A stretch of 55,446 bases of DNA from Dehalococcoidia bacterium UBA5748 (lineage in GTDB: Bacteria; Chloroflexota; Dehalococcoidia; Dehalococcoidales; UBA5627). The stretch covers positions 1 through 55,446 of the forward strand of contig DIFM01000027.1 of NCBI GenBank assembly GCA_002419135.1, in the 5' to 3' direction. Within the stretch, counting starts at the first letter, position 1. Every line of letters starts with the position of its first letter. The position numbers and the translations under genes were made by a program. Below the pieces are notes generated by a model, which saw nothing but the letters and a program-made list of their open reading frames with translations, made no database searches and was not told where the DNA came from. This document shows, piece after piece, positions 23,915 through 30,377 of this stretch.

Positions 23915-24571
23915 ATGGAAATTAAAGTACTTAAAAATATACTGGATGCCAACGACCAGATGGCCATACAGAACCGTAAACTGCTGGCGTCCAAAAAAAT
24001 AATGATGATTAATGTCTGGGCATCGCCCGGCGCCGGAAAAACGACCACTATGCTGAGGACTGCGGAAACTCTTAAGGGAAAAGCGCGTATGGCGGTTATC
24101 GAAGGTGATGTGGCTTCCAGCATCGATACCGTGAAGCTGACTCAGTCCGGTGTTACCGCAATACAGATAAACACCGACGGTGGTTGCCACCTCGATGCCG
24201 GCATGATTAATTTAGCCCTGCAAAATCTGCCTCTGGACGAACTGGATATTATCTTTATCGAAAATGTCGGCAATCTGATCTGCCCGGGCGAATTCGACCT
24301 CGGTGAATATAAGAGGATTATCATTTCCAGCACACCCGAGGGAGAGGATAAACCTCATAAGTATCCGCTGATGTTCACCATCGCCGATGCCTGTATCGTA
24401 AACAAAATTGACCTTATGCCTTATGTAAACTTCGATATCAACAGTTTTATGCGCACGGTTAGCGGAATGAACGGAAAAATCGAAATATTTAAAATCAGCA
24501 GCATCAACGGCGACGGGGTTGATAAATGGGCGGACTGGGTATTAAAGCAACTGGATTCGTATAGACAATAG
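23915..24571 (+). CDS. hypB: Hydrogenase nickel-incorporation GTPase HypB
   Basis: P-loop SPGAGKTT, the ENVGNLICP motif and NKIDL. It starts immediately after the hypA stop. Confidence 0.9.
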   Translation: MEIKVLKNILDANDQMAIQNRKLLASKKIMMINVWASPGAGKTTTMLRTAETLKGKARMAVIEGDVASSIDTVKLTQSGVTAIQINTDGGCHLDAGMINLALQNLPLDELDIIFIENVGNLICPGEFDLGEYKRIIISSTPEGEDKPHKYPLMFTIADACIVNKIDLMPYVNFDINSFMRTVSGMNGKIEIFKISSINGDGVDKWADWVLKQLDSYRQ

Positions 24572-24595
24572 TTTTCAGCGAATACCGAACCACTT

Positions 24596-24631
24596 ATCCC
24601 CTTCCCGGTTCATGGAGAGGGGGATTTTTTT
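24596..24631 (+). terminator. Rho-independent terminator after hypB
   Basis: ATCCCC...GGGGAT stem followed by a T7 run. Confidence 0.6.
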
Positions 24632-24789
24632 ATTTACTGAATTCGTACTTACCAAACAGTGATTTTCTCTATTGTTAAAGGCAATAAATAACTATTGTCA
24701 GAAATATTACTTCAACCTTCCTCTACACTCCTGCGATAACAATTACATCCGTCTTGCTGGTATTTATTATGTCCGCATTTATTTATTAT

Positions 24790-25140
24790 TAAATTATTGA
24801 ATGTTCTGGGGGGGGGGGGGAGAAACGGCAAAGAATTGCCACAGCATTAGAAAGATGTTCTGTAATAGTCGCCCCCCCCCCAAATGCTTCGTTCGACCGC
24901 CACGAACTCAGCATGACAATAAAAATCAAAGCCGTTCGTGGTGAGCTTGTCGAACCATGACGACGACGATAAATAATTACACGTTTTGAAAATCTATTCG
25001 TTGACCCCTTTTCTGATACATCGACAAGCAAGGGCGAACGGTTTTTTAATGTCGTTGCGAGGATTCCCTCTATGAATGTCATTCTGAAGCCATAATGGAT
25101 GGCTGAAGAATCCGGGGGGCGGGGATAAAAATAACCCAGG
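24790..25140. repeat. Repeat-rich intergenic region with a G13 and C10 homopolymer pair
   Basis: G13 at 24808-24820 and C10 at 24872-24881. GACCGCCACGAACTCAGCATG at 24895-24915 is identical to 1293-1313. There is also an inverted GTTCGTGG / CCACGAAC pair and a GTCGTTGCGAGG segment like the one at 1324-1334. Confidence 0.7.
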
Positions 25141-25198
25141 GGATTAGTCCCGGGCTATCATAATTTACTGTTGCATCTGCTTTCCCTAAACGTGATTA

Positions 25199-26185
25199 CT
25201 AAGCGGCTTTTGCCTCTTCTTCGGCAATGCTTCCCACCGAAATGACATAAGAATTGACGGCTTCACCGGCCGGCACGTCGAACTTGAATTTGAACTGCTT
25301 GCTCGCCCCCGGTTCGATATCTCTTATATAAATTACCCTGGTGGCGATTTTTTCGTCCTTGACGTCCTTAAAAAGAGTAACTACGGCGGCATCCGCTTTA
25401 CCGTCACTGATATTTTTCAGCACGCCGGAAATCTCTACGTCGCCGTTGACCGGCTTCATATCATGACTTTTAAGCTGCACCTTCTCGAAATCGGTGGTAA
25501 TTGCCTTGCGAACAGAAACCTTGTACGTCCGGAATGCTTTCGCTTCGGGTTTTTCGGGTGTAATGTTGAAAGTGCAAATGCTTTGCGGCTTGAATTCGAG
25601 TTCCCTGTGGCAGACGGTATCTAAAAGAGTGCCTTCCCCGTCGTAGAAGTTGGCTTCCAGAACGGCGGTAGCTAACGTCTTCTCACAGATATTCTTGATT
25701 TCCATCTCAAGTGAGCGTTTGACGCCAGCACACTCATCGGCTTCGAGTATACGGTGGCTTAATACTTCAATTTTGCTGCTGCCTATGGCTTCAGGGTCGG
25801 GCGTAAGGACTGTTTTTACCACGCTTACGGTATAGCTTCTGATGTCAGCTTCCGGTTTGGAGTATGAAATGTTGAAGCTGCTTATGCCATCCTTATCAAA
25901 ATCCTTAAAACAGTCCTCGATAGTATCGACAATATTGCCGGCGGCATCATATAAAACGACGCTGAAAACCGCCTTGCCGATCGCCTTGCCGGCGTTATTT
26001 TTAAGGTTAAGCACCACTCCGCTGCCTTTTGCCTCATCCCCTTCTTTTATGAGCAGATTATGGCTGATAATTTCAAGGTGCCGGTTACCGGAAACTGTGG
26101 GTTCGGGCGGAGCACAAGGCTGAACAGCTTCGTCAGCCGTTTCTCCGGTTGAAACTTCTTCTTTTATTTCTTCGTTCTCAGACAA
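25199..26185 (-). CDS. Repeat protein with three FxLYD-like beta-sandwich modules (paralogue A)
   Basis: 328 aa. There are three modules of roughly 95 aa, each starting (L/I/V)E(I/V)xSH and containing a VVLYDAAGN or ANFYDGEGT type motif. Acidic N-terminus, no signal peptide. TTG start 8 nt after GGGAGGA. Confidence 0.7.
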   Translation of the reverse strand: MSENEEIKEEVSTGETADEAVQPCAPPEPTVSGNRHLEIISHNLLIKEGDEAKGSGVVLNLKNNAGKAIGKAVFSVVLYDAAGNIVDTIEDCFKDFDKDGISSFNISYSKPEADIRSYTVSVVKTVLTPDPEAIGSSKIEVLSHRILEADECAGVKRSLEMEIKNICEKTLATAVLEANFYDGEGTLLDTVCHRELEFKPQSICTFNITPEKPEAKAFRTYKVSVRKAITTDFEKVQLKSHDMKPVNGDVEISGVLKNISDGKADAAVVTLFKDVKDEKIATRVIYIRDIEPGASKQFKFKFDVPAGEAVNSYVISVGSIAEEEAKAA

Positions 26186-26264
26186 TCCAGTATCCTCCCG
26201 TGTATATTTTAATCTATTCGGAACAGGTTATCTTATAATACCCGTTTTCGAATTATTGTTTATT

Positions 26265-27347
26265 TTAAGCTGCGGGGACTGCCTCGGCTTCTGTCAGTTC
26301 ACCTATATCGATATCGCGTTTTTTAACCGTCAGTCCCTCGGGGCATGTGAAATCCAGCGCAAATATTTGTACGGTACCGGGAGCGATATCTCTCAACTCC
26401 AGGGTTCGTACGCCGATGGGTTCTTCGTTGGCATCCAGATATGTTACCACTACTACGGCGTCGGATTTGACGCTGCTGACGTTCTTTACCAGTCCGCTCA
26501 CTTCTTCGCGCCCTTCCGGCAGCCTCTTGACTTCATTGCGGCGCAGCTGTACTTTTTCCAGCTCGGCGGTTACCGTTTTAATCAGCTTGATGTTATAGCT
26601 CCTGATGATGTCATCTTTGACGCTCGTGGTCTGAATTAAAAAGGCGCGGCTGGTATTGCGCTGGATATCGGTTTCAATGTGTTTTAATGTGGATATGTAA
26701 TTGCCCGCGGCGTCGAACAGGTCGATGGCAAATATGGCGGAGGCGATACTTTCGCCGCATACATTTCTTACTGCGAGTTCTATGCCCCTTTTAATGGTCG
26801 TAATGCCGACATCCGGGGCTCCGGTACCCTGAAAACTGTGCCTTAAAATGACCAGCCTCTGGTCGCCTTCAGCTTCCGGGACCGGCGTGACAACCATTTC
26901 TTTTATATGTACATCGTAGCTTACTATATCGACTTTGTCAGCTTTAGCGGTCATAATTCTGAGGCTATAGGTCTTTTCAGCTTCAAAATCATTTATAGTG
27001 CGTTCGATTGTGTCGATGACATTACCTTTAACATCGAAAAGTATTGCCTCGAATACCAGCTTTCCGATGCTGGCTCCGGCATTATTTTTGAAAGTGAAGG
27101 ATACACCCTTGCCTATCCCATCCACGGACGCTTTTTTGAGTATAAGCGAATGAGACAGGATTTCGACTTTTTCATTGCCGCTGACAACGGGGTCGGGCGC
27201 CTTGCGCGCCATTTCGAACAGTTTTTCGGCAGAAGGCAAACCTTCCCCGCTGGTTTGGTCAAAATTTTTCAGCAGGGTATCAAGGTCTTCTTCGTTCTGC
27301 CGGGGTGGTGTGGGGTTAACTTCCTTAACATCTTCTTTTTCGGACAA
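26265..27347 (-). CDS. Repeat protein with three FxLYD-like modules (paralogue B)
   Basis: 360 aa with motifs AILFDVKGN, IDLFDAAGN and VTYLDANEE. Conserved N-terminal peptide EDLDTLLKNFDQTSGEGLPSAEKLFEMARKAP. TTG start after GGGAGGA. Confidence 0.7.
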   Translation of the reverse strand: MSEKEDVKEVNPTPPRQNEEDLDTLLKNFDQTSGEGLPSAEKLFEMARKAPDPVVSGNEKVEILSHSLILKKASVDGIGKGVSFTFKNNAGASIGKLVFEAILFDVKGNVIDTIERTINDFEAEKTYSLRIMTAKADKVDIVSYDVHIKEMVVTPVPEAEGDQRLVILRHSFQGTGAPDVGITTIKRGIELAVRNVCGESIASAIFAIDLFDAAGNYISTLKHIETDIQRNTSRAFLIQTTSVKDDIIRSYNIKLIKTVTAELEKVQLRRNEVKRLPEGREEVSGLVKNVSSVKSDAVVVVTYLDANEEPIGVRTLELRDIAPGTVQIFALDFTCPEGLTVKKRDIDIGELTEAEAVPAA

Positions 27348-27411
27348 CTCAATCCTCCCGATAGAATATTTTATAAATCAAATTGGATATTAACCAAATA
27401 TATTAATAATG

Positions 27412-28140
27412 CTAGGCCGTCATTTCAGCCGTTTCGCCGATGTCTATGGTATAGGTTTTTACCTTTTCTCCGGTCGGCGGGCGGAAAAGAAGGCTGAAAT
27501 TCTTTACCGAACCCGGCTCGATATCTTTTACAGGTAAGACCACAGTACCCGGTTTTTCTTTTTTGGTATCCAGAAAAGTAACCGCTATCGAGGCATCGGT
27601 TTTAATGCCGGATACATTTTTTATCATACCGGAAACGTTTACGTCCCCGTTTGGCAGGATTTTCCTTTCATCCCCCGTAGCTACAGCAACAGGAGTGACG
27701 GCTATGTTGGTGATTTTTACCTCATAGCTTTTAACATCAGCGTTTTCGGCAGAGGTGACTATGCGTAAAATACGAGTTTTATCGCATTGAAAATCGGTTA
27801 CCGTTTTTTCAACGGTGTCTATGACATATCCCTTGGCATCGAACATAAGGGTTTGCAGTGTAAGTTTGCCGATAGCGGCAGAGGCGATGTTTTTTATCTC
27901 CAGATAAACGCCCTTCCCCGGGCTTCCCTCACCGCTTTTAGGCAGGACTTTATGCGACACTATTTCAACCTGCTTGTTGCCGTTGGCTACCGGTTCCGGT
28001 GCTTTGCGTGCCATTTCAGCCAGTTTTTCGGCAGAAGGCAATCCCTCCCCGCTGGTTTCGTTAAAATTTTTCAGCAGGGCATCAAGGTCTTCAGTAATAT
28101 TTGCAGGCCGGATATCCTGAATATTATCTTTTTCAGTCAC
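27412..28140 (-). CDS. Repeat protein with two FxLYD-like modules (paralogue C)
   Basis: 242 aa with motifs TLMFDAKGY and VTFLDTKKE. It has the same N-terminal peptide (EDLDALLKNFNETSGEGLPSAEKLAEMARKAP) but lacks the middle module of A and B. GTG start after AAGGGGA. Confidence 0.7.
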   Translation of the reverse strand: MTEKDNIQDIRPANITEDLDALLKNFNETSGEGLPSAEKLAEMARKAPEPVANGNKQVEIVSHKVLPKSGEGSPGKGVYLEIKNIASAAIGKLTLQTLMFDAKGYVIDTVEKTVTDFQCDKTRILRIVTSAENADVKSYEVKITNIAVTPVAVATGDERKILPNGDVNVSGMIKNVSGIKTDASIAVTFLDTKKEKPGTVVLPVKDIEPGSVKNFSLLFRPPTGEKVKTYTIDIGETAEMTA

Positions 28141-28353
28141 AGCAGCATCCCCTTTCTACAGCGCTTATCAGTAACAGCTATAAACAGTCAAGTTATATTA
28201 TGTCTAAAATAATTGCAATAGCGCCTAAAACTCATATATGGAAAATTGACGCTACGGCTTGTGATAATTATAATTCGTCATTAAATAAAACACAAACGTA
28301 TTTTACATTTGCGGCGCATTAACACCGACTCATATAAAATGTTATAATTAGAG

Positions 28354-28809
28354 ATGACAATTAAAACGATAGCTAGCAATCGCAAAGCCTATCACGATTA
28401 TCATATTCTGGATAAATATGAAGCAGGGCTGGTGCTTACCGGAACCGAAATCAAGTCAATCCGTTCGGGGAGGGTTAATCTGGGTCAGGCTTTCGTTAAG
28501 CCGGAAGGCGGTGAGATATGGCTGATAAATGCTCATATCGCCCGCTACGAAGCCGGCAGTTATATGAGTCATGAGCCGACACGTACCAGAAAGCTGCTTT
28601 TGAATCGCAAGGAAATCAGAACTCTTATCAGTAAAACAAGCGAAAAGGGTTCGACGCTGGTACCGCTGAGATTATACATTAAAGGTCATGTAGCTAAAGT
28701 GGAGATAGCGCTGGCAAAAGGTAAAAAGCAATACGATAAACGCCAGACAATTATACAGCGCGATGCCGAAAGAGAAATGGACCGCACCATCAAAAGCCGG
28801 AGAAGATAA
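28354..28809 (+). CDS. smpB: SsrA-binding protein SmpB
   Basis: IASNRKAYHDYHI N-terminus, 151 aa, directly upstream of tmRNA. Confidence 0.93.
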   Translation: MTIKTIASNRKAYHDYHILDKYEAGLVLTGTEIKSIRSGRVNLGQAFVKPEGGEIWLINAHIARYEAGSYMSHEPTRTRKLLLNRKEIRTLISKTSEKGSTLVPLRLYIKGHVAKVEIALAKGKKQYDKRQTIIQRDAEREMDRTIKSRRR

Positions 28810-28830
28810 ATATCTTTAACAATTGAATAT

Positions 28831-29185
28831 GGGGACGCAAGGTTTCGACAGTAAAAGTTAGTTACTGGATTGCAGGTTGAGGTTGTCGCAGCCCTCATTA
28901 AAAAGGCGGCAAAAACATAAATGGCGAACCTGAAATGGTTCTCGCTGGCTAAAAACAGCTAGCGCATCCAACCTTACCCCACCCCGGTGGGTAGGGATTG
29001 GGTGTCGAAATGTCGGGGTGCCGTTATCCGAATGCCGATACGGATAGCGAAAGACTTATCGGCTGGCTTGATTGAACTGAGTTGGCAGAGGTCAATCGGG
29101 CAAGATTAAAATGCCGACTAAACCTGTAGCATATTCAGGGCAGCTTTTATTGGACGGGGAGTTCGATTCTCCCCCGTCTCCACCA
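28831..29185 (+). ncRNA. ssrA: tmRNA (SsrA)
   Basis: The 5' GGGGACGCAAGGTTTCGAC pairs with the 3' tRNA-like end GGACGGGGAGTTCGATTCTCCCCCGTCTCCACCA. The internal tag ORF GGC GAA CCT GAA ATG GTT CTC GCT GGC TAA (28923-28952) encodes GEPEMVLAG. Confidence 0.9.
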
Positions 29186-29271
29186 AAAAGCAAATTATTA
29201 TTTAAGGTAATAGACATAAGCATTATTCAACTTTTGCATAAAGAATCTCCCGGTCGTTAATAGGAAGTTAA

Positions 29272-29508
29272 ATGCGGCGTAAAATTCTATTCGGAATGAT
29301 TGGCGGTGCTGTTTTTCTTATTATCGGTTTTATACTTGGGTTAATCACCGGTATAAATATTGGCGGCAATTATTTTACTGATTTTGAGTTTGGCGGTGTG
29401 CGCGGTTATGAGGCGGCGGGCAAAATCGGAGGCGTATCGGGTGCTGTTTTGGGCACAGCGGTAGGAGTGCTACTGGGAGTTAAACTGGCGGGCAGGTCGG
29501 GGAAATAG
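29272..29508 (+). CDS. Small glycine-rich membrane protein, unknown function
   Basis: 78 aa with two Gly-rich hydrophobic helices. No recognisable family. Confidence 0.4.
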   Translation: MRRKILFGMIGGAVFLIIGFILGLITGINIGGNYFTDFEFGGVRGYEAAGKIGGVSGAVLGTAVGVLLGVKLAGRSGK

Positions 29509-29642: not shown

Positions 29643-30377
29643 ATGACAGATGATATAAGCCGTGAGGGGCACAGAAAAAGGCTGCGTGAGAGATTCATAG
29701 AATCCGGTCTTACAGGTTTTGCCGATTACGAAATCATCGAGTTGCTGCTTACTCTCGGCTCTCCCCGGAAAGACTGCAAACAGCAGGCGAAGGAAGCCGT
29801 AAAAAAGTTCAAGACGCTGAGGGGTGTACTGGAAGCCCCGCCCGAAGAGTTGCAACAGATTAAGGGCATCGGTCCTCATAATTCATTCGGCATCTCACTG
29901 ATACATGAAGTCGCCAAAGAATACCGCAAGGATAGCATCATCGAAAAACAGGCGGTGTCTTCCTCGCAGGAAGTATTCGATTACCTCTATCATTCGATGA
30001 GAGGTTTGAAGAAAGAAATCTTTAAAGTGCTGTATCTGAATAGCCAGAATCAGATAATAGAAATCGAGGATTTGTTTCAGGGTACGGTCGACAGCAGCGC
30101 GGTGCACATCCGCGAGGTAATCGAAAGCGCTATTAAACATAAAGCGGTCTCCCTTATATTTTCCCATAATCACCCATCCGGAAATCCAACCCCCAGTCAA
30201 AGCGATAAGGATTTGACGCGCGACCTGATTATGGCAGCCGAGACAGTCGGTATAAAGGTTCTGGACCATATTGTAATCGGGGATAACAAGTATTATAGTT
30301 TTACAGGTGAGGGTTTAATCGACCGTTACGAAACGGATTTTCTGGGGATAAAAGCAAGAAATCGCATCCAGCGGTAG
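29643..30377 (+). CDS. radC: RadC-family JAB/MPN domain protein
   Basis: HhH region (ELQQIKGIGP) and the JAMM motif (FSHNHPSGNPTPSQSD). Confidence 0.88.
   Translation: MTDDISREGHRKRLRERFIESGLTGFADYEIIELLLTLGSPRKDCKQQAKEAVKKFKTLRGVLEAPPEELQQIKGIGPHNSFGISLIHEVAKEYRKDSIIEKQAVSSSQEVFDYLYHSMRGLKKEIFKVLYLNSQNQIIEIEDLFQGTVDSSAVHIREVIESAIKHKAVSLIFSHNHPSGNPTPSQSDKDLTRDLIMAAETVGIKVLDHIVIGDNKYYSFTGEGLIDRYETDFLGIKARNRIQR

Follow-up and report, generated by a model that had tools for sequence, protein, structure and literature searches.

FxLYD domains occur commonly in the genomes of bacteria and archaea, and typical members place a zinc ribbon and a transmembrane helix ahead of a single module; in the literature, we found no paper that studies them. 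What such domains might do in proteins that carry no export signal at all is the question raised by contig DIFM01000027.1 (assembly GCA_002419135.1; all 55,446 nucleotides are referred to here as the window), which comes from an uncultured Dehalococcoidales bacterium. At 25199-28140, its minus strand holds three successive open reading frames (ORFs) in the order C-B-A, which encode FxC, FxB and FxA (the trio):

27412..28140, minus strand: FxC, 242 aa, GTG start; acidic head, N-terminal peptide, modules 1 and 3; leaderless
26265..27347, minus strand: FxB, 360 aa, TTG start; acidic head, N-terminal peptide, three FxLYD beta-sandwich modules; leaderless
25199..26185, minus strand: FxA, 328 aa, TTG start; three FxLYD modules, short acidic head; leaderless, and without the peptide of FxB and FxC

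Previously, this domain family was known by name only; what is new here is a paired, tri-modular version that lacks a leader and has a private N-terminal peptide. We tentatively favor, without rating it as probable, a cytoplasmic-side, non-catalytic role for these proteins in docking, scaffolding or assembly that serves membrane redox complexes.

Leaderless arrays of FxLYD modules

A preliminary description of the locus, made from the letters alone, had assigned the three proteins to the FxLYD type. The NCBIfam model NF038353 (FxLYD_dom, curated cut-off 23 bits) bears this out, scoring 67.8 bits for FxA, 56.3 for FxB and 41.7 for FxC over three, three and two matched stretches, respectively; like other proteins of this family, all three match module by module and share a beta-sandwich fold. 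Module length is about 95-105 aa, and the motif variants VVLYD, ANFYD, AILFD, IDLFD and TLMFD are present. Modules 1 and 3 cluster by their position in the protein, with 39-47% identity among module 1 copies and 40-44% among module 3 copies, against 13-32% between modules of unlike position; the second modules of FxA and FxB share only 23%. This positional clustering of the outer modules means that the three-module layout is older than the paralogues. The terminal module, earlier set apart as distinct, does group separately by position, but it is still of FxLYD type and reads as a diverged FxLYD module.

In FxB, the modules span residues ~54-155, 156-262 and 263-350. Its AlphaFold2 (AF2) model has a mean predicted local distance difference test score (pLDDT) of 81, with three beta-sandwiches above 90 and low confidence for residues 1-50. 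When this model was compared with the PDB by Foldseek, only generic multi-domain immunoglobulin (Ig) arrays were returned, at TM scores of 0.1-0.2 (TRAPPII, cytokine receptors, transglutaminase, complement), so FxB has no specific structural relative there; a PDB sequence search with the trio proteins gave no match. In Pfam nothing exceeded the gathering score, the weak matches being DUF3426, DUF6711 and DUF5643 only, and DUF4352, which the preliminary description had proposed checking, had no Pfam match at E values up to 1 in FxA, FxB or FxC. The trio proteins matched none of the PADLOC anti-phage defense models, and in PHROGs they matched only phrog_14275 (function unknown) and no annotated phage family. 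Domain and structure searches placed them in no catalytic family, and Pfam, PDB sequence and Foldseek comparisons revealed no similarity to known chaperone families. We conclude that the trio proteins are, as predicted from sequence, soluble, acidic, non-enzymatic arrays of Ig-like sandwiches.

The usual FxLYD architecture, with a signal peptide, lipobox or transmembrane helix ahead of the module (typical, not defining), is not found in the trio, as the preliminary description had also noted for signal peptides and transmembrane helices. The highest 19-residue Kyte-Doolittle mean is at most 1.37, leaving no hydrophobic segment or membrane helix; the proteins are acidic (pI 4.9-5.5), as are their first 30 residues, in which the 9-residue hydropathy maximum is at most 0.72. 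Judged by hydropathy, none has a hydrophobic h-region after a basic n-region, as expected of a Sec signal or of the twin-arginine translocation (Tat) pathway, and none has a twin arginine. No signal peptide was present among the aligned orthologues and paralogues either. The family is thus a clear exception to the usual exported, single-module FxLYD form.

Could the leaders have been missed through mis-called starts, as the preliminary description had allowed? Between each start and the in-frame stop upstream there is no other possible start codon, so a longer N-terminus cannot be hidden, and as no leader occurs in the trio or its aligned relatives, the starts are not mis-called. Orthologues in other assemblies use the same TTG and GTG starts with strong ribosome-binding sites. 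The three genes described earlier, with their sizes, non-ATG starts and individual ribosome-binding sites, agree with our ORF calls, the site of FxC being the weaker one:

27353..27359, minus strand: FxB ribosome-binding site GGGAGGA, 5-7 nt ahead of the start, conserved in orthologues
26193-26199, minus strand: FxA ribosome-binding site GGGAGGA, 5-7 nt ahead of the start, conserved in orthologues
~28147-28155, minus strand: FxC ribosome-binding site, weaker, AAAGGGGAT, ahead of the GTG start

A private N-terminal peptide in the B- and C-type proteins

FxB and FxC have in common a non-globular peptide of 34 residues, EDLDxLLKNFxxTSGEGLPSAEKLxEMARKAPxP, which a Pro-rich linker (KAPEP) separates from the folded part; FxA has instead a conserved VQPCAPPEP in its head. 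The peptide is encoded as follows:

27991..28092, minus strand: peptide of FxC, residues 17-50, EDLDALLKNFNETSGEGLPSAEKLAEMARKAPEP; AF2 helices at residues 19-29 and 37-44
27189..27290, minus strand: peptide of FxB, residues 20-53, EDLDTLLKNFDQTSGEGLPSAEKLFEMARKAPDP; AF2 helices at residues 20-27 and 40-46

The exact 21-mer reported here before (27219-27239 = 28021-28041) and the identity of about 90 percent over about 83 nt were both reproduced, the latter as 90.4% over 83 nt (27208-27290 compared with the position 802 nt further on). Synonymous-site identity between FxB and FxC is 0.8-0.9 in the first ~45 codons and 0.35-0.5 elsewhere. Of the two causes proposed for this pattern, gene conversion or strong constraint, both appear to apply. 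Every B-type and C-type orthologue keeps the peptide at the protein level, with F29, G34-E35-G36, E41-K42 and R48-K49-A50-P51 invariant, and in the B- and C-type proteins the peptide has the highest mean pairwise identity of any segment (0.66, versus 0.53-0.59 for the modules). These values point to strong amino-acid constraint on the peptide everywhere. Universal constraint at the nucleotide level is ruled out by the synonymous identity of B and C genes from the same genome, which ranges from 0.38 to 0.73 in the peptide region across genomes. In the lineage of the window and a related locus, L005, however, the B and C peptide stretches are 0.85 identical at the nucleotide level while B is only 0.68-0.75 identical to its orthologues in three genomes that are more distant (L001, L002, L004), a comparison of only 96 nt that suggests at least one local gene conversion between the two stretches. 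A search of 24000-29500 against Rfam found the transfer-messenger RNA (tmRNA) only, so no RNA element accounts for the nucleotide conservation between B and C.

We also asked whether the peptide occurs on other kinds of protein. A peptide-only profile (12 sequences, 52 positions), scored against 1.84 billion representative proteins, matched 12 proteins at E <0.001, and all of its convincing full-length matches are multi-FxLYD proteins of the same family. One outsider, a 1038-aa protein of the FimV/HubP family (TIGR03505 and TIGR03504), matched at an E value of 1e-5, and the two further weak matches, to repeat-containing or low-complexity proteins, are unrelated. The peptide is therefore private to this FxLYD family rather than a tag carried by varied cargo proteins. 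This restriction makes a generic cargo tag unlikely and is easier to reconcile with a docking motif specific to the family.

The FimV/HubP match is confined to helix 1 of the peptide (EEDLDxLLxNFDE), which resembles eight acidic repeats, EDDLDSLLAGFDEP, situated beyond the transmembrane segment of that protein. The likeness covers only about 20 acidic, low-complexity residues, and the GEG turn and the EKLAEMARKAPEP half of the peptide have no counterpart; we know of no function for these repeats. The N-terminal CheY-binding peptide of FliM/FliY has the sequence LSQxEIDALL. A FliM-like peptide of this kind was rejected: the profile aligned only 7 residues of Escherichia coli FliM, at 1.2 bits, and FliM was absent from the exhaustive search.

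An ancestral B-then-A gene pair

Searches of 5.8 billion proteins recovered 31 clusters with FxB, 18 with FxA and 48 with a family profile, and all clusters with a named source come from Dehalococcoidales or Dehalococcoidia assemblies. By these sequence matches, the family is small and named only from these groups. Among related loci, L001, L002 and L004 have C, B and A in the order of the window and beside smpB; L005, also beside smpB, has C then B before its contig ends; and L008 and L010 (on a 1.5-Mb contig) have B then A only. Every A-type orthologue has a B-type gene immediately upstream. Because L008 and L010 have B and A alone, the pair is the core of the family, and from these gene orders we take the B-then-A pair as the ancestral unit and FxC as a later duplicate of B.

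FxC of the window was described earlier as lacking the middle module, and this is accounted for by a precise deletion. C orthologues are ~350 aa long with three modules; compared with its orthologue in L005, FxC lacks exactly 324 nt (108 codons, in frame), which correspond to module 2. The junction is as follows:

27663..27674, minus strand: FxC deletion junction, from the alignment with L005; edges alike, GGGAGATAAAAGG and CAGAGATGAAAGA

A protein of another assembly (P0027) shows this 242-aa form too, the deleted form was reproduced exactly in runs X1 and X2, which come from hydrocarbon-degrading enrichments, and related-strain contigs in runs X2 and X4 have ~324 extra bases at 27663-27674; the deletion is therefore real and strain-specific. 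The AF2 model of FxC contains two intact beta-sandwiches (pLDDT 80-92), and FxC is thus predicted to fold without module 2.

In run X2 the two-module FxC (depth ~35) occurs together with the full-length three-module form of a related strain (depth ~13), from which it differs at ~10% of aligned positions.

Paralogues in exported molybdoenzyme operons

In L006, L012 and L013, a peptide-bearing B' protein (374-378 aa) and an A' protein (335 aa) are encoded within a single co-directional operon. Its genes encode, in order, a propeller sensor kinase, an OmpR-type regulator, a stand-alone receiver, a molybdoenzyme of 958 aa with a Tat signal, an FeS subunit, a lipoprotein that combines a Thr-rich stalk with one FxLYD module, a membrane protein of 189 aa, an FMN_bind lipoprotein, B', A', a Get3/ArsA family ATPase and a B12 radical-SAM enzyme; in L006 only, a DUF4405-like membrane protein stands between the last two. 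The ATPase scores 147.8 bits with TIGR00345 (cut-off 135). A convergent second cassette ends with a leaderless paralogue, A''. Since L010 and L012 share one 1.5-Mb contig, a single genome has both an smpB-linked pair and a cassette pair. The peptide is kept down to these B' paralogues, which are only ~40% identical, and the motif is thus conserved outside the locus in which it was first noticed. More diverged cassettes on metagenome contigs (L019, L022, L024) contain a leaderless FxLYD gene of two or three modules, the molybdoenzyme of L019 being only 38% identical.

The cassette molybdoenzyme carries the twin-arginine signal RRDFLVGAG and, behind it, a hydrophobic run; its FeS partner has no signal. 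Two operons for molybdoenzymes resembling pyrogallol-phloroglucinol transhydroxylase have been described in Chloroflexi genomes (Hug et al. 2013, PMC3971608). Our cassette enzymes are putatively transhydroxylase-like and, from their signals, exported, and it is inside operons of the kind described in PMC3971608 that B', A', A'' and related two- or three-module proteins are encoded; the trio of the window, in contrast, lies outside any such operon. In the literature, we found no paper that places FxLYD proteins in transhydroxylase-like complexes. The lipoprotein of the operon has one FxLYD module, whereas the trio proteins have two or three in tandem and neither signal nor transmembrane helix, and the family further differs from other FxLYD proteins in its B/A pairs and in the private peptide of the B type. 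The exported cassette proteins have a lipobox and a Thr-rich stalk; the leaderless FxLYD proteins have neither.

Three further features of these cassettes deserve mention. In exported proteins of this lineage, among them the Tat-signal molybdoenzyme, a Cys lipobox precedes a long stalk rich in Thr (TTTVT repeats; L012:4267-4500, L012:8057-8623, L013:12255-13094), which suggests lipid-anchored enzymes held off the membrane on the stalk. The A' proteins (L012:11191-12198, L013:6657-7664, L006:9203-10210) have an N-terminal CxxC pair (CTEC or CSVC) and a C-terminal CHC, possibly a metal-binding pair. In L019, 5663-5980 encodes a putative lipoprotein of 105 aa that has three CxxCH motifs and no NCBIfam match, a candidate small triheme cytochrome c; its gene is flanked by that of an FdnI-like cytochrome b on one side and by the leaderless FxLYD gene on the other.

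The Get3/ArsA/TRC40 ATPase is a fixed member of the operon (L012:12245-13147, L006:10258-11154, L013:7714-8607), in which we saw no tail-anchored client for it.

A possible docking role and its alternatives

How might a leaderless array of sandwiches serve an exported enzyme? In the docking or scaffold role that we favor, the FxLYD modules would be protein-binding surfaces and the N-terminal peptide a family-specific docking motif that tethers the array to a partner, which could be the A-type protein encoded with it or some part of a redox complex or of its assembly machinery. The proteins would then be accessory or scaffold subunits, or assembly factors, of membrane-bound redox enzymes. Among the options of the preliminary description, a docking peptide or protein-binding scaffold is the one that holds up best; compartment loading and a generic targeting tag found no support. 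This suggestion is made because leaderless paralogues are fixed in exported transhydroxylase-like molybdoenzyme operons, where B' and A' adjoin the Get3/ArsA and B12 radical-SAM genes. We lean toward action on the cytoplasmic side, because the leaderless proteins lack the lipobox and Thr-rich stalk of the exported proteins of the operon, because B' and A' stand together with the genes for Get3/ArsA and radical SAM, and because helix 1 resembles FimV/HubP repeats that follow a transmembrane segment.

The fold has one characterized relative, DUF3426 of ZitP. FxA matches DUF3426 (Pfam PF11906) weakly in its terminal module (E 1.7e-4, 22.1 bits, under the gathering score of 27.7), and FxB and FxC have no Pfam match to it. 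In Caulobacter, the DUF3426 domain of ZitP is non-catalytic and recruits CpaM (PMC5182063); by analogy, the trio modules may share a protein-recruiting kind of role. ZitP, however, is bitopic in the membrane, with one DUF3426 domain that is predicted to lie in the periplasm (PMC5182063), whereas the trio proteins have no membrane anchor. Together with the FxLYD lipoprotein encoded in the molybdoenzyme operons, this agrees with the preliminary description, in which FxLYD-type domains were held to be normally exported.

Several observations weigh against the role proposed here. The AF2 confidence of the peptide is low (pLDDT 34-63 in B and 45-77 in C) and indicates no docking surface. The trio does not lie beside a molybdoenzyme cassette; its conserved neighbor is smpB/tmRNA, so the link to the cassettes is by paralogy only. 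L006, L012 and L013 are closely related to one another, and in the more diverged cassettes the proteins are A-like and have no peptide. The relatives of the domain whose site is predicted or characterized are all extracytoplasmic, which speaks against a cytoplasmic site, and the resemblance to FimV/HubP, a short acidic motif, may be an effect of composition. Finally, no RNA sequencing run that contains the trio locus was found.

If the proteins do act outside, they could cross the membrane in folded form bound to a partner with a Tat signal, the peptide being the handle, and become extracytoplasmic subunits of exported redox complexes. We regard such Tat hitchhiking as unlikely, though worth serious thought: FxLYD-type domains are otherwise predicted to be extracytoplasmic, as are the one-module lipoprotein of the same cassettes and the DUF3426 domain of ZitP; the FeS partner of the RRDFLVGAG-bearing molybdoenzyme has no signal, so piggy-back export is presumably in use within the cassette; and in the window a cluster of Tat-type [NiFe] hydrogenase and hyp genes lies 627 bp away from the trio. 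Yet that hydrogenase neighborhood is not kept in relatives, and most pairs adjoin smpB, with no Tat substrate. The A-type proteins, which have no peptide, would require another handle, and B' and A' are placed among those genes of the operon that have cytoplasmic products (Get3/ArsA, radical SAM). A related and more speculative idea, which we consider doubtful, is that the membrane redox complexes of Dehalococcoidia have the B/A pairs as a so far unrecognized class of accessory subunits. These extracytoplasmic-type sandwiches would have lost a signal peptide of their own; the docking peptide would deliver them, whether piggy-back on the molybdoenzyme by Tat export or with the help of the Get3/ArsA ATPase.

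The gene neighborhood itself would fit a different explanation, in which the proteins have a housekeeping or stress role apart from redox enzymes, for example as abundant cytoplasmic binding or holdase-like proteins; they would be co-regulated with trans-translation through a divergent promoter region shared with smpB-ssrA, and the cassette copies would be a secondary recruitment. The trio or pair is divergent from and adjacent to smpB in the window and in nine further loci (L001, L002, L004, L005, L007, L010, L011, L014, L016), and adjacency holds also in L018, where SmpB is only 70% identical; the strong GGGAGGA sites suggest high expression, and the rest of the window consists of housekeeping genes. 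We nevertheless think this quite improbable, as L008 has a B/A pair without smpB, synteny in small streamlined genomes need not imply a common function, the proteins are unlike known chaperone families, and the repeated paralogues in molybdoenzyme cassettes are left unexplained. Least probable is that the peptide is a strict export or loading signal, possibly cleaved, whether the leader of a dedicated transporter or an encapsulation peptide, akin to the targeting peptide for non-classical export or compartment loading suggested in the preliminary description. Its N-terminal position ahead of the Pro-rich linker would suit such a signal, as would its acidic amphipathic helix followed by the invariant Gly-containing turn (GEG). 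Compartment cargo peptides, however, would be expected on varied cargo families with shell genes nearby, and among the 1.84 billion representatives no other cargo family has the peptide, nor were shell genes present in the flanks of at least 10 loci. Double-glycine leaders have a GG (or GA/GS) cleavage motif, but the invariant motif here is GEG, and no dedicated exporter or C39 peptidase-ABC transporter gene was seen in the flanks examined. The half beyond the Gly turn is equally conserved, which a cleaved leader would not need, and the A-type partners have no peptide.

The docking or scaffold role that we favor can be approached through three experimental handles, namely the conserved gene pair, the short and strongly conserved peptide, which ought to have a binding partner, and the repeated place of the family in exported molybdoenzyme operons, whose enzymes are abundant in uncultured Chloroflexi of anoxic sediments. 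A partner of the peptide, if found, would provide the first function for an FxLYD protein and might explain how the little-known redox complexes of these operons are assembled; should the partner prove trivial, the family would be an ordinary lineage-specific duplication.

Transcription unit and neighborhood of the trio

The terminator scan found no minus-strand terminator between FxC, FxB and FxA, so C-B-A may be co-transcribed as one transcript. Its likely end is the following element:

25124..25159, minus strand: terminator-like hairpin after FxA, an 11-bp stem then a U-run (from folding)

The plus strand contains antisense ORFs opposite FxB (26907-27497, 196 aa) and FxC (27787-28212, 141 aa), which have in common the mirrored conserved stretch GRRQxxPAGxVKIFQQGIKVF. 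We take these ORFs to be a probable by-product of the conserved sense sequence rather than genes.

The trio is flanked by hypB, which is convergent and separated by the 627-bp spacer, and by the divergent smpB/tmRNA. A functional tie to the hup/hyp neighbors was considered and rejected, as the adjacency is not kept in relatives. The hypB-FxA spacer has long G and C homopolymer runs on the minus strand at 24800-24885. The tmRNA at 28831-29185 (Rfam RF00023, 166 bits) encodes, according to ARAGORN, the tag peptide GEPEMVLAG, which ends in Ala-Gly and not in the usual Ala-Ala. The window has one RadC-like gene (29643-30377), while two in tandem are present at L002:3493-5016 and L010:3926-5493.

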